The notes under the pieces: model-generated | The model's database searches: none | Told to the model about the DNA's origin: nothing | Seen by the model: the letters and a program-made list of their open reading frames with translations, nothing else | UHGV virus genome: UHGV-0141541 | Length of the DNA stretch: 64,000 bases | Direction: 5' to 3' (one strand) | From: a virus | Program-made: the position numbers and the translations under genes | Shown here: piece after piece, positions 17,173-56,488 of the stretch | Layout of the letters: every line of letters starts with the position of its first letter | Numbering within the stretch: position 1 is the stretch's first letter

Positions 17173-17522
17173 GATTAATTCCTTATCGTAAATAACAAAT
17201 TGTTTTCTTGTTGGCGTTAATTATCGTTGTACGAATAAGGCGTCAAAGTGGAAAGTTACGGTAGCCGGACGGGAACAGGTGGGTTTGTCGGTTGCCTGGA
17301 GGTAAGAGGTTGGTGTTTTTAGCCTGCGGGAAACAAGATGGTCATTTAAGGCCACCAATGCTGATGGCCTTAATAATTATCGCCCGATTACGCTAAGGAT
17401 CTTTTCCTCAACTGATTTGTTGTTGCGACTAAACTGCCTTGCGTATCTGATGACAGAAGAGGCGTTTTGCTTTCTGACCATCTCGGCTCTTTCCTTCAGG
17501 CGTTTCTTGAAATCGCCCATAT

Positions 17523-17897
17523 TTACCACCAGGCGCAGAAGGTCAGTCTGTTATTGTGAAAGTCGTGGTTCTTAATCAGATCTTCCACAAGCTCTTTCAA
17601 CTCCCCCACATCATGCCAGTAACCTTCATCGTACTCCTGACTGCCGAAGAAAAAACCTTCCCGGGTAGGCAAGTACTCTTCGCAATTACTTTCGTTTATG
17701 TGCATCAAATGAGCTTTCAGAAGACAAATGTCATTCATCGTTAATTCTAAAAGCTCACAATTTTCGACTTCACCTACGTTGCGCTCCATCCACCCAACGA
17801 GCGCATTGAACTTACGGAAGTAAGCAACCTGCTTTCTGGATGCCTCGTTATTCAGATCGTTTTTAGGCTGTGTCTCGATATAGATATCAAGTCCCAT
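17523..17897 (-). CDS. hypothetical protein
   Basis: ORF track 17523-17939; start moved to MGLDIY (RBS AAGGAA 6 nt upstream); W/C/H-containing C-terminus. Confidence 0.5.
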   Translation of the reverse strand: MGLDIYIETQPKNDLNNEASRKQVAYFRKFNALVGWMERNVGEVENCELLELTMNDICLLKAHLMHINESNCEEYLPTREGFFFGSQEYDEGYWHDVGELKELVEDLIKNHDFHNNRLTFCAWW

Positions 17898-18014
17898 GAT
17901 GGTTTCCTTATTAAGTTGCTTCAGTGAAATCATTTTCACAAATCAGATAAGGCAGAAAACAAATTGTTATCGGGCTTAATAAAATGGCGCGGTTTACGCG
18001 CCATTCAAAGAGGA

Positions 18015-18410
18015 TTAAGCGAATACGCTTTCAGGAATTAAGGTGTCAGCAGGAATGCCGGAGGTAATGCGCAGGCCGTACTGACCAATCCAGGTAGTGT
18101 TGGTATTCAGGCTGGAGGCGAATACGGTGTTAACCATATTCATCATGGTTTCAAACACCTCTTCATCAACCTGGCGGAAGTAGTTCTCGATTTTCAGCAG
18201 CAGCGGGTCAGTTGCATCGAAAATAGACTGGTATTGAGTCGCGTACTCGCCGCCGGAGGCATCACCTTTACGCACGATCGTACTGGCCTGGACTTCGGCA
18301 CCAGTTTCGGTGTTGTACGTAACAACGGTGATTTTTGCCACATTCTTACCTTCGGCGGTTTCAGAGGCATAGTAAACATCAACTGTCAGTTTTTCGCGTT
18401 TAACGGTCAT
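18015..18410 (-). CDS. hypothetical protein
   Basis: 131 aa; RBS GGAGAG; followed by hairpin terminator AATGGCGCG-GTTTA-CGCGCCATT. Confidence 0.5.
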   Translation of the reverse strand: MTVKREKLTVDVYYASETAEGKNVAKITVVTYNTETGAEVQASTIVRKGDASGGEYATQYQSIFDATDPLLLKIENYFRQVDEEVFETMMNMVNTVFASSLNTNTTWIGQYGLRITSGIPADTLIPESVFA

Positions 18411-18474
18411 TTCACTCTCCGTAGTGTCTTAGTTATTTTTATATTTTATAGTCGTAAGTATGTACTTACAATAC

Positions 18475-18503
18475 AAAAAGCCCCGTAAGGATGGCGGGGC
18501 TGT
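18475..18503 (-). terminator. intrinsic terminator
   Basis: minus-strand hairpin GCCCCGCC-ATCCTTA-CGGGGC followed by TTTTTG, after the 18536-18850 gene. Confidence 0.55.
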
Positions 18504-18535
18504 CGTACTGTCGACTAATTACCACTTGCACATTA

Positions 18536-18850
18536 TCAGGCTATTGCCATCACTGATGCTCTCTGAATCTCTTGCTGGGCCACGCGGTTAACTTCCATCA
18601 AAGCCAGTTCGAGCTGATGTTCCGGCCACATTCTTTGAAATGCCACCCAGCCTTTTCCACGCTGGCGACGAACATTCATTACATAACGAGTAAAGGTGTT
18701 TTTATCGAAAGACACCGCTGTTTCACGGAACAGACGAATAGAGGTTCCATTGGCAACGATGTCCAGCAAAGTTAATTGAGCAACCAGCGCAGGCTTCTCT
18801 TTTCGCTTCTGGTCTTTGTCCAGACCAAGAACCAATGATTTTTTCATCAT
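18536..18850 (-). CDS. hypothetical protein
   Basis: ORF track 18536-18877; start moved to MMKKSL (RBS GGAG) because the upstream part overlaps the conserved intergenic motif. Confidence 0.5.
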   Translation of the reverse strand: MMKKSLVLGLDKDQKRKEKPALVAQLTLLDIVANGTSIRLFRETAVSFDKNTFTRYVMNVRRQRGKGWVAFQRMWPEHQLELALMEVNRVAQQEIQRASVMAIA

Positions 18851-19000
18851 AACTCCGTAAACAACTTGTTTTCTCAATGGCGTAAATAATACCAGTAAGA
18901 AAACGGCTACAAAGCATATTGATCAGGCGCATGAGCGATATGCAGGTTCTTCCCTGCGGCTACAGAGAAGTTAAGCCAGCAATGCTGGCTTTGGTTGGGT

Positions 19001-19330
19001 TTACTCGAATACCTCAAGAAACTCCTGAACGTCCCAATGCTGGACAAGATGAAGATAGACCTTAGAAATCACGTCATTCTCGCTATCGCATGTGAAGTAG
19101 TACTTCTGGCTGCGGTTGTATGTGTCCACACAAAATTCGCTCATATCCATAAAGTCAGCATCTTCACCCAGGTCGCAAATCATCAAAGCAGGTGCGTCAT
19201 CACGAGTCATCAGCTCAAGCACCCACCGCGAATTGATCAGAGTGGAAGACCAACCTTCTAACTCATAAAACTGATCAAACTCTTTTTGAGTTAATTTCTT
19301 GATTTGGTTGATGTCGATATGTGCAAACAT
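19001..19330 (-). CDS. hypothetical acidic protein
   Basis: ORF track 19001-19351; start moved to MFAHIDIN (RBS AAGGA 7 nt upstream). Confidence 0.5.
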   Translation of the reverse strand: MFAHIDINQIKKLTQKEFDQFYELEGWSSTLINSRWVLELMTRDDAPALMICDLGEDADFMDMSEFCVDTYNRSQKYYFTCDSENDVISKVYLHLVQHWDVQEFLEVFE

Positions 19331-19342
19331 AAAGCAATCCTT

Positions 19343-19375
19343 AAACAACATGTTTTCTTATTGGTGTTATTATCG
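19343..19375 (-). promoter_or_regulatory. example of recurrent dyad motif family 1 (AACAAnTTGTTTTCT-TATTGG-N-TAATTATCG)
   Basis: AAACAACATGTTTTCTTATTGGTGTTATTATCG immediately upstream of the 19330 start; near-identical copies listed in findings. Confidence 0.5.
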
Positions 19376-19689
19376 TAATAACGCACAGGCGAAAAAGGAT
19401 TTTATTCCGGTGAATGTTGTTTTGGCAGTGAGTTTTCAGGTTCAGTACCGAGTACACTTTTTACATTATTCTGATTTAGTGGCCGAAAGTGGCTGGTGGG
19501 TAGAATAATCCTCTCCCCGGAAACCTACTGAAATCGATTGTGACCCGTTGGCTGTCTGGCACAATTACGCTGTAACTGGGTATTCAGAGGGAGTCCAACG
19601 GTAAGTTAGTCCGCCTGCACGTGAGCGCCTCTCTTCTTCCCGCACATTACAGGTGGGTAGCTGCAACTCTCCCTATCGCTATACCGGTA

Positions 19690-19830
19690 CGCCGCCGTTC
19701 CTGAACCGGCATCGAGCCTTTTCCCGAAACCCACACAGGCAACTCGACCGTTTCCCTGAAAATCCCCAGCCGTTCCCCGAAGGCAACCCAGCCGTTTCTG
19801 TAGCGGGATGCAGCCTTTTCCCTGTATGGA
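19690..19830. repeat. iteron-like direct repeats, consensus RCCGTTTCCCGAA (6 copies)
   Basis: copies at about 19693, 19715, 19745, 19767, 19789 and 19811. Confidence 0.6.
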
Positions 19831-19859
19831 CCGAAGGCTAACCGTAGGGGTGTTACGGG

Positions 19860-20780
19860 GGGATAAAATCAGGAGTTGAATAAATACGAAAAAGGAGGCG
19901 ACACCCCTCCTTCCCTCCCCACTTATACATACCTGGCTTCTTCGCTATACATGTTGTGTTTTCTTCGTGTTTTATCTGTCTCAACCTCTCTATAGGCGTT
20001 AATGCTCACTCCTTCCAGAACGTTCTATACGGCGACTATTTCTGTTGGTGAATTGGGTGTGTTGTTCTCTCTGTCGGTGTATGTGGTTTCGTTCGTTTTG
20101 CGGTGGTTCTTCTATGGGGTGTTCTCGTCGTTTTGGTGATTGTTCTTCTCCGTGTATGGAGTAATGGCAGGTGGGCGATTCCTTTCGTTATTGTGTTTGA
20201 GTTGTTTGTCTGGAGTGCGTGAAGGGCTTTTGTAGTTATTCGTGTATTGGGTAATGGCGTTTCCCGTGATTGTTATGTTTCGTGTCTTTTGGGATTGAGA
20301 GAAACCTTGCGGTTACAGGCTTCGTTGGGGTTTCAGCGGTTCAGGTGTTTCTTCGCTGTTTGGGTAATGGCGTGTCGTGGGTATCGCGCGTATGAATGTT
20401 TTCGGATTGCCTGTGAAAGTTAGGTTGGTTGTCCGGTAGCCTGGGGAGAAGAGGTGGGTCTTTTCGGTAGCCTGCCATAAAGAGGTTGGTTGTTTTGGGT
20501 AATGGCATATGTGTTATTTGGTTGTTTTGTTATGCCTGAAAATAAGTTGTTTATATGGTTGTGTAACGCAACGGGAGCGATTTTGAGCGTGTGTTTTTGT
20601 TGGTAGTGTGTTGAGTCGTCTGTGGTGAAATTTGGACGCTGTGGCGCTATCTGCTGCGTAGAATTACGGGTATAAGAAGTGATGTGTGATAACGTCAATT
20701 TTTTAGACCAAATCGGGAGAAAGCGTTGATGTTTCGTTGATCTGTTATTTAGTTGTTTTCTTATTGGTATAAACAACCAT
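19860..20780. other. GT-rich noncoding tract with internal repeats (no credible ORF)
   Basis: strong G+T excess on the given strand; repeated GGGTAATGGC (about 4 copies) and a ~60-bp unit shared with 17259-17320. Confidence 0.5.
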
Positions 20781-20895
20781 AACCTATTGATATTTAATGA
20801 TGTGATTGCTGGTATGGGAGGGTAGTAGTGGCGATCAACGGGTTCTTATAGAAAAGAATCAAATTGTGACCGCCATTATCAATAAGTTGCAACCG

Positions 20896-21799: not shown

Positions 21800-22099
21800 T
21801 TACCATTGCCAGCACTCAAGCCCTTCAACGACCGGTGCGCCACAATCAAAATGTACAGAGTCAAAGCCTACATCAAGTACTTTCTGAATGTTCGCAATCG
21901 CGCCCTCGGATATACCGTATCGACGCAACTCATCTTTCCAGTCATCGTCCTGTAACCCGGCGTGGACAATGCAACCGTACTCAATTTGTGAAACCCAATC
22001 CAGCTCATTGCTTGCGATCATGAATCGGCAAGCATCTTCCTCTGATGTATGAGATGAGCTGATCAATGCCACCTGGTAGGCTTGGGTAATGTTCAACAT
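21800..22099 (-). CDS. hypothetical protein
   Basis: ORF track 21800-22108; start moved to MLNITQ (RBS GGAG); motif family 1 copy at 22113-22145. Confidence 0.45.
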   Translation of the reverse strand: MLNITQAYQVALISSSHTSEEDACRFMIASNELDWVSQIEYGCIVHAGLQDDDWKDELRRYGISEGAIANIQKVLDVGFDSVHFDCGAPVVEGLECWQW

Positions 22100-22210
22100 T
22101 TCAACCACTCCAAAACAAGTTGTTTTCTTATGTGGTTTATTATCTCCATCAACAAAAGGCAGAAAACAAATTGTTTTAGGTACTGTGTAAATCAGAAGGG
22201 ATTGTGTCTA

Positions 22211-22240: not shown

Positions 22241-22260
22241 TGCGAAGAGAGGTTGTTTAA

Positions 22261-24294
22261 TTACTTAACCTGGTGGCCAGGTTTAGCACCAGCATCCGGG
22301 CTTAACAGGAAGATATCTTTCCCGCCGGGGCCAGCAGCCATCACCATGCCTTCAGAGATACCGAAGCGCATTTTACGCGGAGCCAGGTTAGCCACCATAA
22401 TGGTGTGACGACCAATCAGTGCCTGTGGATCTGGATAAGCGGAACGGATGCCTGAGAAGACATTACGCTTTTCACCACCGAGATCCAGCGTCAGGCGAAG
22501 CAGTTTGTCAGAACCTTCGACAAACTCCGCGTTTTCAATCAGCGCCACACGCAGGTCAACTTTGGCGAAGTCGTCAAAGGTGATGGTTTCCTGAATCGGG
22601 TCGTCAGCCAGTGGGCCAGTTACCGGTGCAGCTGTGGCTTTCACTTCTTCTTTGGATGCTTCCACCAGTGCTTCCACCTGTTTCATATCGATACGGTTAT
22701 ACAGTGCCTTGAACGGATTCACTTTATGGCCCAGCAGCGGTTGCTGGATACCATCCCAAGTCAGTTCTGTATTCAGGAATGCTTCTGCACGTTCAGTCAG
22801 TTTCGGCAGTACCGGTTTCAGGTACGTCATCAGCACGCGGAACAGGTTAATGCCCATAGAGCAAATCGCCTGCAGATCGGCATCGCGTCCTTCCTGCTTC
22901 GCCACCACCCACGGAGCCTGTTCATCGACATAGCGGTTAGCCAGATCAGCCAGCGCCATGATTTCACGAATCGCTTTACCAAATTCGCGGCTTTCCCATG
23001 CTTCACCAATCACTTCAGCGGCATCAGTAAAGGTTTTGTACAGTTGCGGGTCAGCCAGTTCGCCTGCCAGCACACCGTCAAAACGCTTATTGATAAAGCC
23101 CGCGTTACGGGACGCCAGATTCACCACTTTGTTCACGATATCGGCATTCACGCGCTGAACGAAATCCTCCAGGTTGAGATCGATATCATCAATGCGCGAA
23201 GAGAGTTTCGCAGTGTAGTAGTAACGCAGGCTGTCAGCGTCAAAATGATTCAGCCAGGTGCTGGCTTTAATAAAGGTGCCGCGAGACTTGGACATCTTCG
23301 CACCGTTCACCGTCACATAGCCATGAACAAACAGGTTGGTCGGCTTGCGGAAGTTGCTGCCTTCCAGCATGGCAGGCCAGAACAGGCTGTGGAAGTAAAC
23401 GATATCTTTACCGATGAAGTGGTACAGCTCGGCGGTGGAGTCTTTCTTCCAGTATTCGTCGAAGCTGGTAGTGTCGCCGCGTTTGTCGCACAGATTCTTG
23501 AAGGAACCCATGTAGCCAATCGGTGCGTCCAGCCAGACGTAGAAGTATTTGCCCGGTGCGTTCGGAATTTCAAAACCGAAGTAAGGTGCGTCACGGGAGA
23601 TATCCCACTGTTGCAGGCCAGATTCAAACCACTCCTGCATTTTGTTTGCCACCTGCTCCTGCAACGCACCGCTGCGGGTCCATGCCTGCAACATTTCGCT
23701 GAAAGAAGGCAGATCAAAGAAGAAGTGTTCGGAATCACGCATTACCGGTGTAGCGCCAGAAACCACTGATTTCGGCTCGATCAGTTCCGTCGGGCTGTAG
23801 GTCGCGCCGCAGACTTCACAGTTATCGCCGTATTGATCCGGCGCTTTACATTTCGGGCATGTGCCTTTTACAAAACGGTCCGGCAGGAACATGCCTTTTT
23901 CCGGGTCGTACAGCTGAGAGATGGTGCGGTTTTTAATAAAACCGTTCTCTTTCAGGCGAGTATAGATAAGCTCGGACAACTGACGGTTCTCTTCGCTGTG
24001 CGTCGAGTGATAGTTGTCATAGCTGATGTTAAAGCCTGCGAAATCAGTCTGATGTTCCTGACTCATTTCGCCAATCATCTGTTCCGGTGTGATACCAAGC
24101 TGCTGTGCTTTCAGCATGATTGGCGTACCGTGGGCATCGTCGGCACAGATGAAATTAACCTCGTGGCCGCGCATTCGCTGGTAACGAACCCAGACATCAG
24201 CCTGGATGTGCTCCAGCATATGGCCGAGGTGGATTGAGCCGTTAGCGTACGGCAGCGCGCACGTCACCAGAATTTTCTTCGCGACTTGGGTCAT
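22261..24294 (-). CDS. metG: methionine--tRNA ligase, host-type
   Basis: 677 aa starting [26 protein letters not shown] (HIGH motif), KMSKS present, C-terminal tRNA-binding domain; the 720-aa ORF-track start is an upstream extension. Confidence 0.95.
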
Positions 24295-24451
24295 AGTAGG
24301 CATTACTTCTTTGTAGTGAAAAGGGGCTTGATAGTAACAAAATGGCCTTATGTCTGCCATGTGATAACAGCATTTCTCATAAATGATTAAATGTCGTAGC
24401 TGGAGTACACTACAAGGCGACAATTGCGCAAATTAAAATAAAGGAGACGGG

Positions 24452-25552
24452 ATGAGCGAGTCCAAATCGCCGGATGCCCTGAGAGCAATGGTAGCCGGTA
24501 CGCTGGCTAATTTTCAGCACCCAACCCTGAAACACAACCTGACTACGCTTAAAGCGTTACACCATGTTGCGTTGATGGATGACACACTGCATGTCGAACT
24601 AATCATGCCTTTCGTGTGGAATAAGCCTTTTGAAGACCTGAAAGAGCAATGTAGTGGTGATCTGCTCCGTATCACTGGCGCAAAGGCTATTGACTGGAAG
24701 CTGTCGTACAACATTGCCACGCTTAAGCGCGTCAAAAACCAACCAGGCATTAATGGCGTTAAGAACATTATCGCCGTCAGCTCAGGCAAGGGCGGCGTGG
24801 GTAAATCCTCCACGGCGGTAAACCTGGCACTGGCGTTGGCTGCTGAAGGTGCGAAAGTTGGTATTTTGGATGCCGATATCTATGGTCCATCAATTCCAAC
24901 CATGCTGGGCGCGGAAAACCAACGTCCAACCTCACCTGACGGTACTCACATGGCACCTATCATGTCTCATGGCCTGGCAACCAACTCTATTGGTTATCTG
25001 GTCACCGACGACAATGCAATGGTGTGGCGTGGACCGATGGCCAGCAAGGCGCTGATGCAGATGTTGCAGGAAACTCTATGGCCTGATCTGGACTATCTCG
25101 TTCTCGATATGCCGCCGGGCACTGGTGATATTCAGTTGACGCTGGCGCAGAACATTCCTGTAACTGGTGCGGTTGTGGTAACTACGCCGCAAGACATCGC
25201 GCTGATCGATGCGAAGAAAGGCATTGTGATGTTCGAAAAAGTCGAAGTGCCGGTACTGGGTATCGTTGAAAACATGAGTGTGCATATTTGCAGTAACTGC
25301 GGTCATCACGAGCCAATTTTTGGCACCGGTGGCGCACAGAAACTGGCCGAGAAATACAACACGCAGTTGTTAGGCCAAATGCCACTTCATATCTCTCTTC
25401 GTGAAGATCTGGATAACGGAACACCAACCGTTATTAGTCGTCCAGATAGCGAATTTACAGCTATTTATCGTGACCTCGCAGATCGCGTTGCTGCCCAAAT
25501 GTATTGGCAAGGTGAAGTAATACCTGGCGAAATCGCATTCCGCGCAGTGTGA
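24452..25552 (+). CDS. apbC: iron-sulfur cluster carrier protein ApbC/Mrp, host-type
   Basis: 366 aa; deviant Walker A SSGKGGVGKSS, CxxC motif (CSNCGH); divergent from metG with 157-bp intergenic region, the arrangement I recall for E. coli. Confidence 0.93.
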   Translation: MSESKSPDALRAMVAGTLANFQHPTLKHNLTTLKALHHVALMDDTLHVELIMPFVWNKPFEDLKEQCSGDLLRITGAKAIDWKLSYNIATLKRVKNQPGINGVKNIIAVSSGKGGVGKSSTAVNLALALAAEGAKVGILDADIYGPSIPTMLGAENQRPTSPDGTHMAPIMSHGLATNSIGYLVTDDNAMVWRGPMASKALMQMLQETLWPDLDYLVLDMPPGTGDIQLTLAQNIPVTGAVVVTTPQDIALIDAKKGIVMFEKVEVPVLGIVENMSVHICSNCGHHEPIFGTGGAQKLAEKYNTQLLGQMPLHISLREDLDNGTPTVISRPDSEFTAIYRDLADRVAAQMYWQGEVIPGEIAFRAV

Positions 25553-25553
25553 T

Positions 25554-27728: not shown

Positions 27729-28222
27729 AGTAGTGATCCTGTCTTAACAATGCTGGACTTTAAAAGTAGTGGTAAGTGTTTAAGTCACTACGCTTGCCAG
27801 CATGGTTAATAAAGATCAACTGTCATTGGCAGGTAGTTCGACTTGCTGTCTTTTAGGTCACTTACAGCCTTGGCAATCAGCTCCGATACCTAAGATACCA
27901 GAATGGCCGATTTTAGCAAGACGAATAAATGATGCTTTCAGCTAGCCATGTCCTAGCATGGCCAGATTTTGGGTGTTCGTATTTATTTCATTGACCAGCA
28001 TTATAATCGTTAATCTGGTTACTCGGAGACGGGCTGCAACATCGAGCGCAGCGCGTGAAGGTGGAAGGATAAAAGTTGGCAGTTATCTCAGCTACCCGGT
28101 CACTCTCCCATGAAGTAGTTCTGAACCGGATTAGAGAAATGCAAAACGATAACAGAGGCTAAATCGAGGTAGAAAACACATTATTTAAGGCCACTAATTG
28201 TGGCCTTAAAGGGGAGAGATGC

Positions 28223-29615: not shown

Positions 29616-29833
29616 TCGTCATCCTCATCCGAGTCATCCTCATCACAGGATGAGAGTAGTGGGTTAGTCATTCGCCCTACTTGAGTGGCGTAGCCACGCC
29701 GACAGAGATTGCGCAGCACACTGTATATTTCGAACATCTCGGTTCGTTCATCGCCAACATCAAACTCAGATGCTATAGCGTGGCATTCAGTCGCGAGAGC
29801 CGATATTTTCTGAAATAACTCTGCTTTATTCAC
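29612..29833 (-). CDS. hypothetical small acidic protein
   Basis: 73 aa, 4-nt overlaps with both neighbours. Confidence 0.4.
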   Translation of the reverse strand: MNKAELFQKISALATECHAIASEFDVGDERTEMFEIYSVLRNLCRRGYATQVGRMTNPLLSSCDEDDSDEDDE

Positions 29834-30330
29834 TCTTCGACTCCTTTACGAAGCTGTTCAGCAATACTTACGCATATCTCTGCGCCTCTAATCAGCCCCG
29901 GAACGTTCTTGTTTGGCCCAACTTCACCATCAACAAAATCAATCATCGCGTTACGAGCCATATCCACGCCTTGCGCACGTACTTCAGCCAGAAAAGCATC
30001 GGTGGCTGGAGTCTCCGTTAATTCGCTAACCCAATTATCTCCGTGTTCGTCGGCACACATCTCATCGAATGCTCGCTCAGATTCTTTCAGGGCTGCATTC
30101 TCCGCCGCTAATGCGTCTCTCTGCGCCCGCAACTTCTCAATTTCGGCAGCCATGTAGTAACCAACCATAGCGAAGACGGCAAAAGAGTTGTCTGCCTCAT
30201 CAGGCGACACTGAGGCCATTAGCAGACCATCGTAATAATCGTGACTCCCATTGGTGATCGCCACCGCATAGGAGTCGTGGTTCTCACGCTTGTGAATGAG
30301 AACTACGGGGTTTTCGATTTTGTTACTCAT
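29830..30330 (-). CDS. hypothetical protein
   Basis: 166 aa ORF. Confidence 0.5.
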   Translation of the reverse strand: MSNKIENPVVLIHKRENHDSYAVAITNGSHDYYDGLLMASVSPDEADNSFAVFAMVGYYMAAEIEKLRAQRDALAAENAALKESERAFDEMCADEHGDNWVSELTETPATDAFLAEVRAQGVDMARNAMIDFVDGEVGPNKNVPGLIRGAEICVSIAEQLRKGVEE

Positions 30331-30468
30331 GTGTTTTTCTCTTCTTTGCTGTTACATAAGCACTACCAAGTGCTGGTTTATTTTCACAAATAAGAAAAGG
30401 TAGAAAACAATTTATTTAAGGCCACAACTTATGGCCTTTATTTATTCATGCCGAAGGATTTGTAGCGT

Positions 30469-30849
30469 CTAATTGCCGGATAAAATGGGGTGAGGTGCTT
30501 GCCAGTAGGCTCCACCGGTCCATGTGAACCCCATGCGAATAAGAGTGTTTATTGCGGCTTTGGTAGACTCAGATTCGACACTGGCTTTTCGAAACTCTTG
30601 AACCTCTTTCGCCAACCTGTATGTAATTGTGCAGGGGACGATTGCAGCCCAGCCTTTCTCATGACTGTTAATGACCATCTGGATGTGACCATCCAGAATA
30701 GGTTGATTAGGCATGTTATTGAAAACGTCTGCCTGTTTTTGAATGTGAATAAAAAGCCTTGCCAGCTCCATTTGCTCACTACGAGACAAGGGATTATCAA
30801 GAGGGCTTTTTGCAAAAGCGGCTATACGCTGTGCGTCAATGCCAAACAT
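30469..30849 (-). CDS. hypothetical protein
   Basis: 126 aa ORF; followed by hairpin GGCCATAAGTTGTGGCC. Confidence 0.5.
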   Translation of the reverse strand: MFGIDAQRIAAFAKSPLDNPLSRSEQMELARLFIHIQKQADVFNNMPNQPILDGHIQMVINSHEKGWAAIVPCTITYRLAKEVQEFRKASVESESTKAAINTLIRMGFTWTGGAYWQAPHPILSGN

Positions 30850-31553
30850 CAGCGCACCTCACCATCTTTATGGCTGGAGTTAACTTCCGCCATTAAATGT
30901 CTGACGTAATCGACAAGAGAGCCACCTGGTGGAATCTGGCATTCCTCAACTAACTGGAAGTAGATATCCGCTGCATTACGTGTATTGCTACCCGCACATA
31001 TTCTTTCTTCCCGAAGTGCATGAAGCTCGTTGATCAAACGGTCACACTCTCCGTTACGCTGATCCACAACGGCCTCAAGCTCTGCGACGCATTCACCTGG
31101 CGTCTTACCTTCTTTGCGTTGGATGGTAACGACGAAATCGCCAATTGCAGGGACGTTGTAATCCAGCTCAAGGTAGTTTTTGGCACCGCTGCGGACGAAC
31201 TCACCCGCGAACATGGTGGCGAACATCGCAGAGGCCACTTCGCCGTTGAAAAGTGACTCAAGATCTAACGGAGTCCCGGCAGCAAGAGCCTCTTTTGCTG
31301 TATCCATTGCATCCATGAACCGATCAAACTCACTAGCGCGCTTTTCCATGTCTTTCCATTGCTCGCTCCAACGTTTGGCAACGAAGTCTATGAATGTTTT
31401 CGCGGATTCATCAAAATTCCCCTCAAACTTAACGATGCCTTTATCAATAATGATCTGGCCTACCGCATCCTCTGCATAACCTTTCAATGTAAACTTGAAA
31501 GGAAAATCAGAATGGCCTGTGACGTTAAAATGCTCTAACTGGAGGTTGTTCAT
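30849..31553 (-). CDS. hypothetical protein
   Basis: 234 aa ORF; motif family 2 copy about 45 nt upstream. Confidence 0.5.
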   Translation of the reverse strand: MNNLQLEHFNVTGHSDFPFKFTLKGYAEDAVGQIIIDKGIVKFEGNFDESAKTFIDFVAKRWSEQWKDMEKRASEFDRFMDAMDTAKEALAAGTPLDLESLFNGEVASAMFATMFAGEFVRSGAKNYLELDYNVPAIGDFVVTIQRKEGKTPGECVAELEAVVDQRNGECDRLINELHALREERICAGSNTRNAADIYFQLVEECQIPPGGSLVDYVRHLMAEVNSSHKDGEVR

Positions 31554-31614
31554 GTGTTTTTCTCTTATCGTTTAGTCACTAAATTCTTACACAAATTAAG
31601 TAAGTATTTACCTA

Positions 31615-33300: not shown

Positions 33301-33441
33301 AATTACACCATTAAATAATTTGTTTTCTGATTGGTGTAATTATCGCAAACTTGAAAAGGCATAAAAGCTGCATTCATAGGCGTTACAGCAGATTTAAGGC
33401 GTAAAAATGGGGGCTGTCGCCCCCTGTCGACTGGTGCTGTA

Positions 33442-34731: not shown

Positions 34732-34824
34732 GTGTTTTCCTTTTGTTATTTGTCAAAACAAGTTGTTTTCTAGTTAAATAAATTGCTTACGCAAAGACGG
34801 TCAATGCATATGCACTAACAACCG

Positions 34825-40047: not shown

Positions 40048-40692
40048 CTAATGAACGGTCACTCGGCCACAGAACCGGTTTTCTATCTTTTCTACAGCGT
40101 TATCTAGCATTCTCATCACTGATCTGGCTCTTGCTTCAACCGTGCGATACCGGTTGGAAACGACGAAGGTTTGCAGATCTCCCCTTTGCGGATGCAGGTG
40201 AATTTTTGTCAGTTCCCCGCACATCAACGCATCAATACGAGCGACATACAGACGGTCTAATGATGCTCGTTGTGATCGCAAGTAATCTCGCTCTGAGAGA
40301 GCGACTCCCGGGCGTAAGCCAGCAATGGCGTTAAAGTTTGAAATAGCAGTTTTGTGGCAAAACTTTTCGATATCGAGGGCTAACTCAATACACCGATCTT
40401 CATTTGTATGGCCGACCAAATCCAACGTGTAGGCCATAACATCAGCAGGTGTGCGATCGATAACAAAGCCTTCAACACCACGCGTAAGTAGCTCTATATG
40501 CTTTGCTATTTCCATTTGAATCTGAAGCCGCTCATATAGAGGCATAGAATCACCTACTCGAACACCGAGGCGGCTCATCAAACTTCCGACACCAGCATCC
40601 ACGTAAGGGATTCCGTAATGTTTGTCGATATATTTAGCCAGGGTTGTTTTCCCACTGCCCTGAGCACCAGTGATCCCAATCCGGTAATCCAT
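40048..40692 (-). CDS. P-loop kinase, possible dNMP kinase
   Basis: 214 aa; Walker A GITGAQGSGKTT at N-terminus; in nucleotide-metabolism block next to DHFR/ThyA; substrate unverified. Confidence 0.55.
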   Translation of the reverse strand: MDYRIGITGAQGSGKTTLAKYIDKHYGIPYVDAGVGSLMSRLGVRVGDSMPLYERLQIQMEIAKHIELLTRGVEGFVIDRTPADVMAYTLDLVGHTNEDRCIELALDIEKFCHKTAISNFNAIAGLRPGVALSERDYLRSQRASLDRLYVARIDALMCGELTKIHLHPQRGDLQTFVVSNRYRTVEARARSVMRMLDNAVEKIENRFCGRVTVH

Positions 40693-41168
40693 TACGACCT
40701 TCTGTATACGATCTGCGAAAAGCCAGGCTCTTCCTCGCTGGCTCGTTGGGTATAAGCTGTTTCAACAGGCACAAAGCCTAAGTTACGCATCATGCTTGCC
40801 GGGAAGAATGCATCGGCGTTTGGTACATCAACGCCGATGTGGGAGAGCCAAATCTCTTCAACATGCGGCATGAATAGCGAGTAAATTTGTTCCCCGCCAA
40901 TCACCCACACAGGCTCTGGTAATCGCAACACATCATCCATACCAGCAGGGTAGAATCCATTTGGTACAAAGCCATGAGAGCGCGTCAAAACGAGGTTATG
41001 ACGCTCTGGAAGAGGGCGTTTGAGACTTTCCATCGTTTTACGCCCCATAACGACAGTGGCGTTTTTGGTGAGTCTCTTAAATAGCTTCAGATCGGTAGAA
41101 CAACGCCAGGGGAGTTCATTCGCTATGCCGATCTCATAGTTACGGCCAACAGCAGCGATCATCTTCAT
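40692..41168 (-). CDS. folA: dihydrofolate reductase
   Basis: 158 aa; N-terminal IAAVGRNYEIG..LPW, VVMGRKT, VIGG matches DHFR family pattern. Confidence 0.8.
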   Translation of the reverse strand: MKMIAAVGRNYEIGIANELPWRCSTDLKLFKRLTKNATVVMGRKTMESLKRPLPERHNLVLTRSHGFVPNGFYPAGMDDVLRLPEPVWVIGGEQIYSLFMPHVEEIWLSHIGVDVPNADAFFPASMMRNLGFVPVETAYTQRASEEEPGFSQIVYRRS

Positions 41169-41579: not shown

Positions 41580-42683
41580 TCACACCGCCACTGGAACCTT
41601 GATCCACGGTAGAGGGTCATAGCCAAGAATTAAAACTTCGTCCCATTTGAAATCATCCAACTCTGACCATTCATGAGGGAAAATAACGACCGGATCTGAA
41701 TGCTCTGGAGCCTGTCGTTTCATTAGCTCACACACACCTTCCATGTGGTTGTTGTACAAATGCACGTCAAAGCCAAAATGCACAAATGCACCGGCCATGT
41801 GACCCGTAATCTTCGCGAGAAAATGAGTGAGAATGCCATAGCCAGCAATATTGAATGGCATACCAACAAAAGTGTCTACGCTACGCTGTACGAGGCAGGA
41901 GTTGAGGATGCGTTTGGGGATTCCAAGTTCATCCAGTTCAGCTTCAGTAACACTGCCGTCCATCTCCAGATCGTATAGCATCTTGGTGTAGATAGACTCG
42001 TAACCGAGGCGACTGTGTTGAAGACCAATGTCAGTTGCCATCGTTAAACGGGTTTCAAAATCCAGCTCACGACTCCACAAAGAGAAGACAAAGTGGCAAG
42101 GTGGCAGTTTCATATCCTCAAGCTCGCCTACGTTCCATGCGTTAAGCATGATGCGACGATCGGTAGGGTTCGTGCGCAGTGTATCGACAATACGCTGTAG
42201 CTGATCGATTTCACGGGACAGCACTACGCGATCTTCACTGATACCCAGGTATCCCTCGACTTTGTACCCGCGTTCACGGAAAGTAGCGATCTTGCTCAGA
42301 TATTCACTATGGCTCACGATGCGGGTATCTTCCCATCGACGCCACTGCTTACCGTAAACCGGCCCCAAATCGCCATTCTCATCGGCCCATGCATCCCAAA
42401 TCTTAACGCCGTTATCCTTGAGAAATTGGATGTTGCCCGTGCCTTTCAGATACCACTCAAGTTCGACAAGCAGTGGCTTAAGATTTACCGCCTTTCCAGA
42501 AATAAGCGGCACAGTCCCACCAGTAAGCATGTAGTAAGAGGGAACGTAGCAGGTGCTTAAAGTACCAGTGCCTGTGCGATCATCAGCCTGCACGCCGCTT
42601 TTAAGCACCGTCTCAATAACTTTTGCATACGATGCGTTTGTTACCTGACCGTTCGTATGCTCACGATTCAAAAGGAGTGACAC
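41580..42683 (-). CDS. thyA: thymidylate synthase (ThyA-type) with insertions
   Basis: DRTGTGT, WADENGDLGPVYGKQWR, LPPCH (catalytic Cys), PFNIAGY; start uncertain (GTG with RBS GAGG proposed); about 100 aa longer than E. coli ThyA. Confidence 0.85.
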   Translation of the reverse strand: MSLLLNREHTNGQVTNASYAKVIETVLKSGVQADDRTGTGTLSTCYVPSYYMLTGGTVPLISGKAVNLKPLLVELEWYLKGTGNIQFLKDNGVKIWDAWADENGDLGPVYGKQWRRWEDTRIVSHSEYLSKIATFRERGYKVEGYLGISEDRVVLSREIDQLQRIVDTLRTNPTDRRIMLNAWNVGELEDMKLPPCHFVFSLWSRELDFETRLTMATDIGLQHSRLGYESIYTKMLYDLEMDGSVTEAELDELGIPKRILNSCLVQRSVDTFVGMPFNIAGYGILTHFLAKITGHMAGAFVHFGFDVHLYNNHMEGVCELMKRQAPEHSDPVVIFPHEWSELDDFKWDEVLILGYDPLPWIKVPVAV

Positions 42684-43801: not shown

Positions 43802-44944
43802 TTACAGGTCTGCAAACTGGCTTAGAGAAGCCTTATCCACGGTAGAATCGATCTGACCTACCAGATATGTGCTTTGCTCTGCCTCTTGTGGTGCAATTTG
43901 CAGTGTGTCGGTTAACAACCACTTGTTCATCCAGACCAGCGGATCAGTGGTAACTTCTGGAAATAAAGCCTTCAGGCCAAGACGATTCATAGCCAGATTG
44001 GTTCGGTATTTTACATAGGTCTTCAGAATATCCGCGTTTAAACCAATCATCGAACCGTCTTTGAAGAGATAGTCTGCCCAGTTCATTTCTTGTTCGGCGA
44101 CTGATTTCATGGTGTCGTAAATGACGTTTTCTTCATCAGCAGCAATCTCTTTCCACAATAAACCTTCGCGACCGGTACGCATGAAGCGGATCATGCGTTC
44201 AGTTCCTTCGCAATGCAGAGCTTCATCACGGGCAATAAAGCGCATAATTTTGGTGTTACCCTCAAGCAACTTCCGTTCGCCAAAGGCAAACGTACATGCA
44301 AAACTTACATAGAAACGGATCGCCTCAAGCGCATTAATGGACACCAACGTGCGGAAAAGCTGACGATGCAAAGGGTATGGCTCCCAGCCATATTCATTTA
44401 CGTACAGACGTTCAAACTCTTTCTCACCTAACGACTGGCGCTCGCAGGTCATCCCATAAAGCCTGTCATATTCAGCAGAGATACTGATCGCTCGGTTGAT
44501 GATTTCTTCATCCGTAACAATACCGTCAAAAACAATGCTCGGATCGTCCACCATGCCACGAATAATGTGGGTGTAGCTGCGGCTATGGATAGTCTCAGAG
44601 AAAGACCATGTTTCAACCCACGTTTCCAGTTCAGGAATAGAGATAAGCGGCAGCAGCGTTGCATTTGGGCTACGTCCCTGAACTGAGTCGAGTAACGTTT
44701 GATAACGGAGATTGCTCAGAAAAATGTGACGTTCGTGGTCCCGCAGCTTCGTGTTGAAGTCGATACGATCGCTCGAAATATCAACTTCTTCCGGCCGCCA
44801 GAAGAAAGACAATTGACGTTCAATCAACTTTTCAAAATCACGGTATTTTTGCTGATCGTAACGTGCCACGTTGACAGATTGTCCGAGGAACATAGGCTCT
44901 TTGGTTGCATCATTAGCACCCAAACGGAACGTTGAATATGACAT
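43802..44944 (-). CDS. nrdB: ribonucleoside-diphosphate reductase beta subunit (class Ia)
   Basis: start set at MSYSTFRL (RBS AAGGA); long stretches match E. coli NrdB (e.g. [37 protein letters not shown]). Confidence 0.9.
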
Positions 44945-45049
44945 GTGTTTTTCCTTTTGCTTTTTGATGTGTTTAAACAAGTTGTTATCTTATTTGTTTA
45001 AACAAGGCTTACAAATCAAAGAGAAGGTGGGGTTATACCCCACCATATG

Positions 45050-47365: not shown

Positions 47366-47438
47366 GTATCACCAAATAAAGAGGGCCACTAAATATAGTG
47401 GCCCATGTTAATAGATAAGCACTTACCTATCAATGAAA

Positions 47439-53081: not shown

Positions 53082-53182
53082 TATGCTGCCAGCGGTAATT
53101 GATAGTCTGTCAACGGTTCGCCGTATGCTGCCAACTGTTTTTGGTATGCTGCCAGCGGCAAATCAAGTATGCTGTCAGCGGT
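53082..53182. repeat. iterons upstream of rep (4 copies, consensus TATGCTGYCAGCGGT)
   Basis: copies at about 53082, 53123 (degenerate), 53145 and 53168. Confidence 0.75.
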
Positions 53183-53202
53183 TGAATGACAAAGGTGTCC
53201 AC

Positions 53203-54297
53203 ATGTCCACAAAAAATAAAAAAGGTAAAAATAACAAAGAAGTAGAAGATAATCTCGACAACTTTGAAGAAGGTTCCCTTGAATTGTACACAGGGGAACT
53301 TGTCCCTAATAGCAACAATACAGTCCAACCAATTGCGTTGATGCGGCTGGGGTTGTTCGTGCCCACGCTCAAGGGGACAAAATACAGCAAGCGTAACAAG
53401 CCAAATGAGATCGATGCTTCAAAGGAGCTTGTTCAGCTCGAAGTAGCCCGTTCTGAAGGCTATTCCGATATCAAGATAACCGGTCCTCGTCTCGACATGG
53501 ATCATGATTTCAAAACGTGGGTGGGCGTTGTGCGTTCGCTGGCAGAATACGGCGAACCTAACGGTCGTGTCGAGTTAAGCATCACGAAATTTGCGAAGTT
53601 TTGTGGCTATCCATCGTCACAGATCCGCAAAACACTCCGCGACCGGCTTACAAACAGTCTTTTGAAGATCATGCGTACAACTCTGTCTTTCCAGAGAACG
53701 TATGAAGAAAAGAACGTCGACGGCTCTAACAAGATCTCGCTTCTGATGGTGCACCTCATCAATAGCGTGGACTACAACGAGCAGAAAGATACGGTGGTGT
53801 TCTATGCAGAACCGAAGCTGGCCGAACTATATCGCTTTGACCATAAGGTTCTTTTGCAGTTAAAGGTTATCAATAAGCTACCACGCAAAGAAACAGCACA
53901 GGCTCTGTACACCTTCATCGAAAGTCTTCCAACCAAGCCTGCGCCGGTATCGCTTGCTCGATTGCGTGCGCGACTCAATTTGAGTAGCAGGAATGTCAGC
54001 TCGCAGAATCAGACTATACGTAACGGCTTAAAAGCTCTCCAAGATTTGGGCTATCTCGAATATAGCGAGATTAAGCGGGGGCGGTCGATCTATATCCAGA
54101 TTCACAGCCGCAATCCAAAACTCAAAGTCGCACCGCCAAAACCTGAAGACATCGAACCCAAAAAACCAGATGAGAAAGCCGGGGAAATTGATGCTAAACA
54201 GAACATTATCAACAAGATAACTGAACTTTCGCAGAATTTGACGCCTGAAAATATCAAGATGATTGAGATCCTTTCCAATAGTCTCAAACTGCTTTGA
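53203..54297 (+). CDS. iteron-binding replication initiator (RepA-like), putative
   Basis: ORF track 53083-54297; start moved to MSTKNKKGK (RBS AAGGTG) because the N-terminal extension is encoded by the iterons; flanked by iteron arrays. Confidence 0.6.
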   Translation: MSTKNKKGKNNKEVEDNLDNFEEGSLELYTGELVPNSNNTVQPIALMRLGLFVPTLKGTKYSKRNKPNEIDASKELVQLEVARSEGYSDIKITGPRLDMDHDFKTWVGVVRSLAEYGEPNGRVELSITKFAKFCGYPSSQIRKTLRDRLTNSLLKIMRTTLSFQRTYEEKNVDGSNKISLLMVHLINSVDYNEQKDTVVFYAEPKLAELYRFDHKVLLQLKVINKLPRKETAQALYTFIESLPTKPAPVSLARLRARLNLSSRNVSSQNQTIRNGLKALQDLGYLEYSEIKRGRSIYIQIHSRNPKLKVAPPKPEDIEPKKPDEKAGEIDAKQNIINKITELSQNLTPENIKMIEILSNSLKLL

Positions 54298-54298
54298 T

Positions 54299-54830
54299 AT
54301 GCTGTCAGCGGTGAAATGTATGCTATCAGCGGCTATTTTCCTGAAAAGTATGCTGTGAACGGTTAAAAGATATGCTACCAGCGGTATAGTGAGATAAACG
54401 TATGCTGTGAGCGGTTAATCATCTATCACCACTCAATGCTCTGTCATACCTCCCCAGTGGTTACTAACCTCGAAGAGTGCATTCCATAAAGGTTTGCGCT
54501 CACTAACATTCTATTGCCATTGCGCTGATTGCTTGTAGTGAAAGGCATTTATTGCCTGCTGCTCTCTGATAGAACGTATGCTGTCAGCGGTGTTTTATTG
54601 AGGAATTTTTGTTTGGATATGCTATCAGCGGTAATTAATGGTATATGTCAGACCTTCGTATGCTGCCAGCGGTAATTTTGTTCTGGTTATACCCATACCG
54701 GGACATATTATTCATGCAATGTCTTAAGTATGCTGTCAGCGGTAAAAAATCGAGTAAAGTATGCTGTGAGCGGTGAGATAGACTCTCGATATGCTATCAG
54801 CGGCAGTTGATTGTGTATGCTGTCAGCGGT
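54299..54830. repeat. iteron array downstream of rep (about 12 copies of TATGCTGYCAGCGGT)
   Basis: copies at 54299, 54319, 54349, 54371, 54401, 54577, 54617, 54658, 54729, 54760, 54789 and 54816, irregularly spaced. Confidence 0.8.
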
Positions 54831-54877
54831 GACGACTATGAAATATGACTGCGGCACGTGCCGCAGTCAGTTTGCAT

Positions 54878-55090
54878 TTAGTGTATTTTCTTCAACAGAC
54901 CCCAAAGTGTTCCGGCTTTTGTAGTCAGTTTTCCTGTTTCTGGATCGTACATACGCCATTCACGCCGCTGGTGGACGATATACCCATCTTCACGTTCCAG
55001 ACGCTCAAGAATGCCAGGCTGCTTGAAACCCTTAGCACGCCAGTATCCGGTTGTTTTCTCGATTTCCAGACCTGCCAGTGTTAATGCCAT
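54878..55090 (-). CDS. hypothetical small protein
   Basis: 70 aa; followed by perfect palindrome GACTGCGGCAC/GTGCCGCAGTC at 54848-54869. Confidence 0.4.
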   Translation of the reverse strand: MALTLAGLEIEKTTGYWRAKGFKQPGILERLEREDGYIVHQRREWRMYDPETGKLTTKAGTLWGLLKKIH

Positions 55091-55425
55091 TATCCAACCT
55101 CCTTGCAGTCATCGAAAAGGTAGCTTTGCTGAGAAGCGTGAACGCCATAGAAGCCCTTGTATTTGTTGTATACGAAGTGGTCTTCTCCGACGCCGGTTAA
55201 TTTGCCATTACGGTTTGTGAGATATGGGGATGACAATACTCGATCGTCTCGCACAACATAGAACTGGTCGCCGCTGTCTACGACCATCGCGCCATATGGT
55301 GCTTTTATGACGTCGGTAAGAGCGCCATTCTTAACGTCGGCTACAGACATTTCACACTGATAAACAGTGGTGTCGGCCACAACGATCGAAGAAAGGAACA
55401 ACAGCGCGAATGGGATGGCCTTCAT
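55090..55425 (-). CDS. secreted protein (signal peptide)
   Basis: 111 aa; N-terminal MKAIPFALLFLSSIVVA; RBS GAGGTG. Confidence 0.5.
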   Translation of the reverse strand: MKAIPFALLFLSSIVVADTTVYQCEMSVADVKNGALTDVIKAPYGAMVVDSGDQFYVVRDDRVLSSPYLTNRNGKLTGVGEDHFVYNKYKGFYGVHASQQSYLFDDCKEVG

Positions 55426-55601
55426 GCTGCCACCTCTTTGATTACATCAAATGCTGAATTAAATACGAGCACGATAGCCAAAGCGTTTATGACTACGTCG
55501 TTCACCGGGGAAAAGACTTTACGAATGACACCAGTGAAAATGCAGTCGATGACAAAAGCTATTGACACGATGAGTAACAAGTATTCAATAAAAATCTTCA
55601 T
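55422..55601 (-). CDS. small hydrophobic membrane protein (not in ORF track, 59 aa)
   Basis: translated by hand: MKIFIEYLLLIVSIAFVIDCIFTGVIRKVFSPVNDVVINALAIVLVFNSAFDVIKEVAA; stop overlaps next start (ATGA); no clear RBS. Confidence 0.4.
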   Translation of the reverse strand: MKIFIEYLLLIVSIAFVIDCIFTGVIRKVFSPVNDVVINALAIVLVFNSAFDVIKEVAA

Positions 55602-55640
55602 GATAGGTAGATACTAACTTATATAAATTTTACTGTAAAC

Positions 55641-55916
55641 TCACTCAAAAGTGCTGATGCTTAAAATACGCTCAAGATGTGCGGCATCTTCATCACTGAT
55701 TTGTTGAGTCTCTTCTACGTACCAACAGTTGCCGTTATGCCAACAAACACCATCATCATCAATCATCACTGAATCAGCGTCATGACCTGTATATTCAACG
55801 AGAATACGCTGGATCAGCGCGTCAGTTTCTTCGTCGTTAAGGCCATCGGCTTTGACCATAAAAAGCGGAAACACGTCATAGACAGTGCTGGTAACGATTC
55901 GAACTAAAACTCTCAT
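55641..55916 (-). CDS. hypothetical acidic protein
   Basis: 91 aa ORF. Confidence 0.45.
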   Translation of the reverse strand: MRVLVRIVTSTVYDVFPLFMVKADGLNDEETDALIQRILVEYTGHDADSVMIDDDGVCWHNGNCWYVEETQQISDEDAAHLERILSISTFE

Positions 55917-55971
55917 GTGTTTTTCCTTTTGTGGTTAGTGTTTACTTATTTTGTTAGTTATGAATAGGCGA

Positions 55972-56397
55972 TCAATCTTCTTGTTTAGGGAAAAACTGTT
56001 CAATAACTCTGTCAACGGCTGTGTCTATATGGAGTAGATGCCACACAACCATATCTTTGCTTCCCATGCCTTGTGTGAATATCACGTCATACTTACGCCA
56101 TGCGCAGTGGAACCAATATGCTGAGTCATCAATTGGTAAATCCTCTCCCGCCTCTTTGAAGTATTTCAGCAGCATTGCCTGCTCTGCCGTTGGCGTTGGA
56201 CCTATTTCCTGAGCGTACATACGGATGAATCGCTGCCAGTCTGTCTCGTCGGGGGTTGGATCTGGTGGGGTCATTTCTGCGATAGCGTTTCGTAGCTGAT
56301 GCGCCCAATCAGGTTCAGGAAAGCCTTTTGCTACTTCATCATCAATAACATCCAGAGCCACGTTTGCAGCATCGTAGAGTTTCTTAATAGCTGTCAT
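55972..56397 (-). CDS. hypothetical protein
   Basis: 141 aa ORF preceded by motif family 1 copy at 56414-56445. Confidence 0.5.
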   Translation of the reverse strand: MTAIKKLYDAANVALDVIDDEVAKGFPEPDWAHQLRNAIAEMTPPDPTPDETDWQRFIRMYAQEIGPTPTAEQAMLLKYFKEAGEDLPIDDSAYWFHCAWRKYDVIFTQGMGSKDMVVWHLLHIDTAVDRVIEQFFPKQED

Positions 56398-56488
56398 GTT
56401 TTCTTATCCTTTCAAACAAATTGTTTTCTTAATAAGATAATTGCGATAAAAAAGGCGTCCAACTGGACGCCTGAACTTTTTAGGGGAG

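Follow-up and report, generated by a model that had tools for sequence, protein, structure and literature searches.

Why are scattered genes of a large phage-plasmid preceded by copies of one and the same control sequence? The question is raised by a stretch of 64,000 nucleotides of the virus genome UHGV-0141541, called here in its full length the window, in which a conserved control sequence of ~60 bp with the palindromic core AACAAnTTGTT stands in about sixteen copies ahead of scattered genes. The repeated unit very probably acts in cis as a promoter/operator cassette, one specific to SSU5-type phage-plasmids, and we tentatively favour the view that its palindromic motif is a DNA operator for a dimeric element-encoded regulator, which would act negatively at the site downstream of the promoter, named O2. 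Phage-plasmids of the SSU5/pHCM2 type are found widely in clinical Enterobacteriaceae, with resistance and accessory genes among their cargo; to our knowledge, their regulation is essentially unstudied.

The window was 100 % identical to plasmid pS2-S1K81-2 of Escherichia coli strain S2 (NZ_CP107145.1, from position 58731), an SSU5/Cyrano-type phage-plasmid of E. coli. The E. coli phage-plasmids Cyrano, PhiR41_1 and CMS-2020a shared 96-97 % identity with the window; the identity to Salmonella phage SSU5 and to the Klebsiella phage-plasmid pJN2-26 was patchy, at ~75-88 %. The gene order starts with head genes, terS/terL, an operon for two ParB-like proteins, an ABC protein and proteins of 296 and 88 amino acids (aa), and a divergent uvsW operon, and continues with many small accessory genes on the minus strand, a host-like metG-apbC insert, genes for nucleotide metabolism and recombination, and repA.

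Occurrence of the motif

The exact core AACAAnTTGTT was found ten times in the window against an expectation of 0.19, a number reached in none of 100 dinucleotide shuffles; the 17-mer AAGAAAACAAnTTGTTT with up to two mismatches occurred 15 times against 0.18 expected. All ten exact cores lay in the intergenic share of the window, which amounts to 13.4 % (binomial p ~2e-9), and an unbiased count of intergenic-enriched 8-mers was topped by pieces of the motif (AGAAAACA, GAAAACAA and AAGAAAAC). An equal frequency in coding DNA, named in the earlier note on this stretch as speaking against its proposal of a control site, was thus not observed. The nine full and three inverted or partial copies listed in that note were all recovered in their places, and three weaker copies absent from its list were added (20537-20554, 28171-28188 and 30402-30419). 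The extension described there on the plus strand, TTTTCT-TATTGG-N-TAATTATCG, is real and corresponds on the gene (minus) strand to a -10 region and the stretch from the -10 to the palindrome; the inverted copies consist of a 17-19-bp element, the same as in the full copies, turned round. Throughout, the orientation of the motif was locked to the downstream minus-strand gene. No description of the AACAAnTTGTT motif, or of a second palindrome family treated below, was found in the searchable literature, where the cassette has not been described before.

Architecture of the promoter cassette

Anchored alignments of 84 sites from four genomes were reduced to 36 non-redundant sites of class A and 15 of class B. 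On the gene strand, class A reads TTTKAC-GCCTTTT-N9-(TGn)GATAAT-aACaCCAAyA-AGAAAACAAnTTGTTTAA-(1-30 nt)-Shine-Dalgarno-ATG and commonly lies behind the terminator of the gene before it. O2, the 17-19-bp element AGAAAACAAnTTGTTTAA, follows 10 nt after a -10-like hexamer (GATAAT, GAAAAT or TATTAT) that is often extended by TGn. In class B the same element is inverted (TTAAACAAnTTGTTTTCT), often right behind a terminator hairpin, and is then followed by aCCTTTTcttatcTGnGAAAAT. A minority of promoters has an inverted second copy, O1, located upstream of the promoter and an exact reverse complement of O2 including the flanks. The centres of O1 and O2 were 51 bp apart in every dual promoter, five of them independent (window 22114/22165; SSU5 88320/88371 and 93663/93714; pJN2-26 24760/24811 and 28540/28591).

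In 23 of the 36 non-redundant sites, 15 of these with TG, the -10-like hexamer had its start at -25 (+/-1) relative to the O2 centre; relative to the O1 centre, its start was at +26 in nine of 15 sites, seven with TG; among the phased hexamers of the window itself, four of eight carried the TG of an extended -10 (O2 33314 and 18860, O1 30406 and 17958). With A at position 2, T at position 6 and a consistent location, the hexamers have the features by which a sigma-70 -10 is recognized. The distance from O2 to the start codon varied from 18 to 53 nt. Since the -10 distance is fixed and the start-codon distance is variable, the element is phased with the core promoter and not with the ribosome-binding site; the earlier note had put the core next to the ribosome-binding site, which is true as to adjacency, but not as to phasing. 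A canonical -35 hexamer at 16-18 bp was not present in the cassette, and a generic -35/-10 scan missed the motif promoters, a -35 not being required for the extended -10 subclass. A TTTKAC-like hexamer at 15-16 bp from the -10 may be regarded as a weak -35. Canonical promoter-like sites in the region numbered 19, compared to 29.6 in shuffles. If the polymerase starts ~7 nt after the hexamer, O2 would be centred at ~+14 and O1 at ~-38.

The copies in the window are as follows.

56412-56429, minus strand: O2 (AGAAAACAATTTGTTTGA) ahead of the DUF7238 gene 55972-56397, exact core, ending 17 nt from the ATG
before O2 56412-56429, minus strand: terminator hairpin GGCGTCCAGTTGGACGCC with T-run
44973-44990, minus strand: O2 (AGATAACAACTTGTTTAA) between nrdA and nrdB, ahead of nrdB 43802-44944
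34754-34771, minus strand: O2 ahead of the TciA/TerB-like gene 34306-34731
34025-34058, minus strand: O2 34025-34042 and -10-like CACAAT 34053-34058, ahead of gene 33442-34008
33311-33347, minus strand: O2 33311-33328 and extended -10 TGcGATAAT (hexamer 33339-33344), ahead of the DUF4942 gene 31615-33300
30380-30419, minus strand: O1-type element 30402-30419 (1 mismatch) after terminator hairpin 30418-30438, then TGtGAAAAT (hexamer 30380-30385), ahead of gene 29830-30330
28171-28188, minus strand: weaker O1-type element (TTAAATAATGTGTTTTCT) after terminator hairpin 28184-28210
22111-22178, minus strand: dual cassette of O1 22161-22178, GCCTTTT box, -10 GATAAT 22139-22144 and O2 22111-22128, ahead of gene 21800-22099
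20537-20554, minus strand: O1-type element with 1 mismatch, within 1.5 kb free of annotated genes
19341-19374, minus strand: O2 19341-19358 (variant AACATGTTGTT) and -10 GATAAT 19369-19374, ahead of gene 19001-19330
18857-18894, minus strand: O2 18857-18874 and extended -10 TGgTATTAT (hexamer 18886-18891), ahead of gene 18536-18847
17932-17971, minus strand: O1-type element 17954-17971 after a terminator hairpin, then extended -10 TGtGAAAAT (hexamer 17932-17937), ahead of gene 17523-17897
17191-17225, minus strand: O2 17191-17208, -10 GATAAT 17220-17225 and TTGACG as -35-like hexamer, ahead of gene 16690-17172
8016-8093, minus strand: terS (late-operon) leader with O2-type element 8076-8093, O1-type element 8050-8067, hairpin GAGCGC..GCGCTC 8033-8050, T-run 8023-8032, Shine-Dalgarno and terS ATG 8012; kept in SSU5 and pJN2-26

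The nrdB copy follows the nrdA terminator hairpin and is kept in the orthologous spacers of SSU5 and pJN2-26, without a clear -10 hexamer. At the DUF4942 promoter, the -35 region, the -10 and O2 are kept in three diverged genomes. The hairpin of the terS leader (GAGCGCATGGACGCGCTC) is GC-rich, is followed by a T-run right before the Shine-Dalgarno sequence and lies downstream of both motif copies; it looks like a terminator or attenuator to be read through by late transcription.

Conservation and selection

Eight orthologous promoter regions from three genomes diverged by 20-30 % were compared column by column. In the arms and flank of O2, 91 % of the columns were invariant, against 25 % for the central base of O2, 65 % for the -10 hexamer and 39-57 % for all other intergenic positions. 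The difference between arms and centre points to site-specific purifying selection, a constraint rather than recent copying. The motif was kept throughout the SSU5 supercluster: it was present in Cyrano, SSU5 and pJN2-26, the element with its architecture also in L140 and L142, and both persisted in IMG/VR contigs with a nucleotide identity of only ~68-70 % in the core genes. A 16-mer scan of IMG/VR yielded multi-copy loci which were all located on SSU5-type contigs of ~50-112 kb; single matches elsewhere look like chance.

This selection pattern bears on the idea that no dedicated trans-factor exists, and that a successful promoter and leader, acting as initial transcribed sequence and A/U-rich translation enhancer, was spread by duplication and recombination, the uniformity reflecting common descent and homogenization. 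The similarity indeed spans the whole cassette from the -35 to the Shine-Dalgarno sequence, the gene units are cassette-like, each with its own terminator, and in the window and in Cyrano an extra gene separates an O1 and an O2 that belong to one promoter in SSU5. Common descent, however, does not account for arms that are kept while the base between them varies, and neither dyad symmetry nor a fixed O1-O2 spacing of 51 bp is needed in a leader or an enhancer. Nor were homology breakpoints enriched at the copies above the level of intergenic positions in general. Together these observations make an origin by spreading alone very unlikely.

The same breakpoints were used to judge a role of the motif in recombination or at mosaic junctions. 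Six of 84 breakpoints towards Cyrano, SSU5 and pJN2-26 were within 60 nt of a copy, compared to 2.2 expected at random positions and 10.0 at random intergenic positions. According to the earlier note, copies mark both ends of the host-derived metG-apbC segment (22260-25548). This held for one end, with copy 22161-22178 at a distance of 85 bp, but at the other end the nearest copy (28171-28188) was 2.6 kb away. As the breakpoints did not exceed the intergenic background and only one end of the host segment was near a copy, the role in recombination was rejected. The segment itself encodes a methionyl-tRNA synthetase (metG) and a divergent apbC with ~90 % identity to E. coli chromosomes. It is also present in Cyrano, where apbC was expressed in the lysogen and metG was not, at 92 and 16 fragments per kilobase per million mapped fragments (FPKM), respectively.

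Expression in the plasmid state and mode of control

Expression values were taken from the RNA-seq table of LF82 (supplement of PMC9928086), in which Cyrano resides as plasmid prophage; the values are given per gene only, for an overnight culture in lysogeny broth (LB), with a floor of 5 FPKM. Motif-driven genes had 7.1 (terS), 7.8 (cobT), 5.7 (gene 58), 12.9 (nrdB), 7.8 (DUF4942), 7.5 (gene 101) and 6.7 FPKM (gene 110) in the lysogen (PMC9928086), with a Cyrano median of 9.8 FPKM (PMC9928086); somewhat higher were the helicase with 21 and gene 111 with 25 FPKM (PMC9928086). With most motif-driven genes near the floor, the cassette promoters are mostly off in the plasmid state.

Placement, phasing, selection, conservation and this silence all fit a shared operator or an element-specific promoter class, as the earlier note had suggested. 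The site could be an operator, an activator site or a site acting at the RNA level. In the operator reading, which we favour, the host sigma-70 RNA polymerase would start ~7 nt after the -10 hexamer, so that O2 at ~+5 to +23 and O1 at ~-47 to -30 would both fall within the polymerase footprint. The 13-bp palindromic core would be bound by a putative dimeric DNA-binding regulator encoded on the element, and binding at O2 would be expected to repress. Five helical turns apart, O1 and O2 would face the same side of the helix and could be bound cooperatively. One regulator might thus hold scattered transcription units under common control, at least 16 in the window and at least 25 in the genome, which would be silent as long as the element is a plasmid and be switched on with lytic growth. 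The cassette marks out 25 or more transcription units in each genome and divides them into two presumptive regulons, that of AACAAnTTGTT and that of GGTAAGTRCTTACC, the second palindrome. It provides defined DNA and RNA probes for the regulators and a testable reason for the silence of most of the ~110-kb element in the plasmid state.

Several observations weigh against repression from O2. The gene parA has an O2 and was yet expressed in the lysogen, with 50 FPKM in LB and ~300 in other conditions (PMC9928086). The positions +14 and -38 are reckoned from the -10-like hexamer alone, in promoters that the generic -35/-10 scan does not call. The flanks are asymmetric, with AGAAAA always toward the core promoter, an asymmetry which a symmetric dimer site would not need. 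For several copies, e.g., those of nrdB and the helicase, no convincing -10 is present and a location within an operon is conceivable; a purely promoter-linked operator leaves them unexplained. Finally, none of the plausible DNA binders of the window was clearly expressed in the lysogen: the 88-aa winged-helix protein encoded at 8208-8474, here wHTH-88, had 7.8 and the ParB-like proteins 5-9.5 FPKM (PMC9928086). The silence could therefore reflect a missing activator instead of a repressor.

The motif promoters would in that case form an activator-dependent, middle or late class, weak by their poor -35 and the G at the first -10 position, and would fire once an early product binds the element. 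The best candidate for this product is wHTH-88, the last gene of the ParB-ParB-ABC-296aa operon, in a cascade in which a CI-like repressor holds back the early operon; wHTH-88, as a product of this operon, would in turn activate the motif promoters, including that of terS. Silent motif genes in a lysogen in which no candidate repressor stands out would be explained. The gene of wHTH-88 is itself off and lies directly upstream of the two-element terS promoter; the first 57 residues of the protein are invariant across genomes diverged to 75 % identity, and it has a weak match to LexA_DNA_bind (E 0.07) and a MarR-like wing pattern. The promoter of the parB operon carries the other palindrome, the presumed CI operator, and an O1 centred near -38 would suit class-II activation. 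However, 36 of the 51 non-redundant copies have only an O2 at ~+14, a position from which activation is rare, and wHTH-88 could equally serve in packaging or bind the other palindrome. Distant phages with the same module from ParB to terS and terL have other inverted repeats and no AACAAnTTGTT sites. Activation by an early product is, on balance, unlikely.

The module in question (ParB_N, ParB_N, ABC ATPase, a protein of ~296 aa, a winged-helix protein of ~90 aa, terS and terL; in the window 8208-11381, minus strand) is kept in distant, otherwise unrelated phage contigs (L226, L227, L229 and L231). The 296-aa protein and the ABC protein of the module rank with the best-conserved ones of the group, with 88-90 % at the distance of L142. 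As the module is silent in the lysogen, the ParB-like proteins are not the partition proteins of the plasmid.

A further candidate binder was a 92-aa protein (13026-13304, plus strand) whose gene is co-transcribed with uvsW and whose N-terminus looks ribbon-helix-helix-like. The Cyrano homologue belongs to the few genes with strong expression in the lysogen, at 114 FPKM (PMC9928086). In the window, a motif-like 17-mer (13035-13051) overlaps the region of the start codon; this 17-mer is not kept in distant homologues. As a ribbon-helix-helix repressor the protein is a poor candidate. The AlphaFold2 model is of low confidence, with a predicted local distance difference test score of 51, and Pfam lent no support. 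The strand that would read the DNA has changed strongly, at 33-62 % identity of the protein overall, next to a motif that does not vary. Among host factors, a sigma-28 promoter was considered for the resemblance of CGATAA to GCCGATAA, but the -35 part does not fit on inspection. Sites of KdgR, IHF, Fis, PhoP, Zur and MntR appear not to fit in spacing or half-sites, a judgement made without computation.

A possible site on the RNA

The location of O2 in what would be the transcribed leader, close to the Shine-Dalgarno sequence, allows for a different target. A protein of the FljA family, encoded in the window at 13800-14324 (plus strand), could bind O2 in the 5' leader, block ribosome entry at the Shine-Dalgarno sequence and destabilize the mRNA, in the manner of Salmonella FljA, which acts on the translation of fliC mRNA (PMC2652032). 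The protein matches PF03614 (E 1.9e-84), its gene is active in the lysogen and is retained even by Klebsiella elements, and it was modelled as two tandem Sm/Hfq-like domains; the 73 FljA homologues are mostly located on contigs of ~105-112 kb. The fliC leader of Salmonella and Citrobacter shares CAAGTTGT with the motif, 12 nt upstream of its Shine-Dalgarno sequence. FljA with the fliC leader, and also RegA of T4, resemble the present case in a small phage- or islet-encoded RNA-binding repressor with an A/U-rich site upstream of or over the ribosome-binding site. FljA has, however, one known target, whereas a regulon of 20-30 would be required here, and the likeness to the fliC leader does not go beyond CAAGTTGT. 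The shared CCAATAA is part of a hairpin found in all enterobacterial fliC leaders, and CAAGTTGT is absent from the E. coli leader, so that only an 8-mer match is left (roughly p 0.004-0.03). The phasing with the -10 hexamer and not with Shine-Dalgarno sequence or start codon, as well as an O1 inverted with its flanks upstream of the promoter, suit double-stranded DNA better than a single-stranded RNA site. The FljA-like protein moreover falls to 53-57 % identity across elements in which the motif is unchanged. An operator on the RNA thus appears quite unlikely.

A stable RNA structure was rejected: the hairpin of the palindrome reached only -0.2 to -1.8 kcal/mol, and the z-scores of the leaders were ~0. 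The arm variants of the aligned sites showed no compensatory changes, and Rfam gave no match at the gathering threshold in the whole window.

A wider form of this proposal is a post-transcriptional regulon. In the plasmid state, 20-30 mRNAs of lytic and accessory genes would be silenced by the FljA-family protein with its two Hfq/Sm-like domains, bound just ahead of each ribosome-binding site, and the Salmonella pair of FljA and fliC leader would be a domesticated offshoot of the phage system. We regard this as quite unlikely. Such a regulon, if true, would account for the retention of the gene in phage-plasmids of the non-flagellate Klebsiella. An Sm-fold binder of this kind would represent a rare case of phage-wide translational immunity and would trace a textbook regulator of Salmonella back to phages.

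Another family of palindromes

Between their CI-like and cro-like genes, Cyrano and pJN2-26 carry an exact intergenic GGTAAGTRCTTACC (Cyrano 42606-42619) and not AACAAnTTGTT. The family (ATA)GGTAAGTRCTTACC(TAT) gave nine strand matches at six places of the window, with 0.74 expected.

6111-6124, 11400-11415, 31599-31612, 35650-35663, 37863-37876 and 47414-47427: copies of the second palindrome

These copies precede the portal gene, gene 30849-31553, gene 35023-35517, dam and nrdA; in other genomes, holin and tail-fibre genes likewise have a copy ahead of them. The palindrome often stands in the spacer of a canonical promoter or just after it. At the promoter of the ParB operon (11400-11422), TATAAT (11417-11422) is followed by a close variant of the palindrome (11400-11415). 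From its place in the immunity region, GGTAAGTRCTTACC is probably the operator of the CI-type repressor. The element has, in consequence of both sets, two interleaved site families. The immunity region carrying a different palindrome, the AACAAnTTGTT family is probably not the operator of the primary repressor, and the CI-like repressor itself (homologue of CYRAN_45) is unlikely as binder of AACAAnTTGTT.

Comparison with known systems

Lobocka et al. are said to have described in 2004 the C1 repressor of P1 with its many dispersed operators. The likeness is that, in a plasmid-prophage, one short operator is repeated at many separate promoters and one protein controls many units. The C1 operator is, however, an asymmetric 17-mer (ATTGCTCTAATAAATTT), in contrast to the 13-bp palindromic core at a fixed position (+14, sometimes -38) found here. 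A search of the window for the C1 operator gave one match with three mismatches, and 28 of 100 shuffles did as well.

Stoperators of the mycobacteriophages L5 and Bxb1, reportedly the subject of Brown et al. in 1997, likewise occur in dozens of copies in short intergenic gaps downstream of promoters, where bound protein would block the polymerase; stoperators have one orientation relative to transcription. Here, all O2 copies are sense and the O1 copies are inverted. Stoperators are asymmetric 13-mers identical to the repressor's own operator, whereas the present element, palindromic in its core and in tight phase with the -10 hexamer, occurs also inverted upstream of the promoter and differs from the palindrome of the immunity region.

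Late promoters of P1 (Lpa) and middle promoters of T4 (MotA box) share with the cassette a sigma-70-type -10, the absence of a good -35 and an extra conserved element, which a phage factor recognizes in P1 and T4. The inverted repeat of the P1 late promoters has its centre at about -22 and the MotA box of T4 at about -30, in contrast to ~+14 and -38. A homologue of Lpa or MotA was not seen in the annotation or in family searches, which were not exhaustive and included no Lpa-specific search. KorB and KorA of the IncP plasmid RK2 offer another parallel, with an odd-length palindromic operator of 13 bp at many plasmid promoters, some near -39, and here, too, two ParB-family proteins are encoded. 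The ParB-like genes are, unlike korB and korA, silent (5-9.5 FPKM) and belong to a terminase-adjacent module also present in distant phages without the motif, and most sites are at +14. The PeSL promoter/stem-loop cassettes of T4-type phages, reportedly introduced by Arbiol et al. in 2010, are similar as repeated promoter cassettes which adjoin stem-loops and flank small variable genes; the modular shuffling attributed to them was unsupported here, with breakpoints not above the intergenic background.

Since the P1 sequence is absent, the site of the immunity region is different and the repeat positions are unlike those of P1 late promoters, none of the compared systems fits as a family. By analogy, the P1 C1 operators and the L5 stoperators are nearest in logic; P1 late and T4 middle promoters are the counterparts of a promoter class, and FljA with fliC and T4 RegA those of an RNA site.

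Further features of the window

The gene repA (53083-54297, plus strand) is flanked by seven iteron-like repeats GTATGCTGT, often with TCAGCGGT nearby (53167; 54300-54830), presumably the plasmid origin. A phage dihydrofolate reductase is encoded at 40692-41168 (minus strand) and labelled by the Prokaryotic Genome Annotation Pipeline as trimethoprim-resistance gene dfrA51, which has been described (PMC12217456).

Several intergenic terminators have a common stem, GGCGTCC-N3-4-GGACGCC (17237, 56452, 57591/57604 and 59926/59938); the word AAGGCGTC occurred seven times in intergenic and never in coding DNA. The region 19331-20895, 1.5 kb without RefSeq genes, holds besides the O1-type copy 20537-20554 a strong terminator-like hairpin (19889-19915). 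In the Cyrano counterpart of this region two small open reading frames are annotated.

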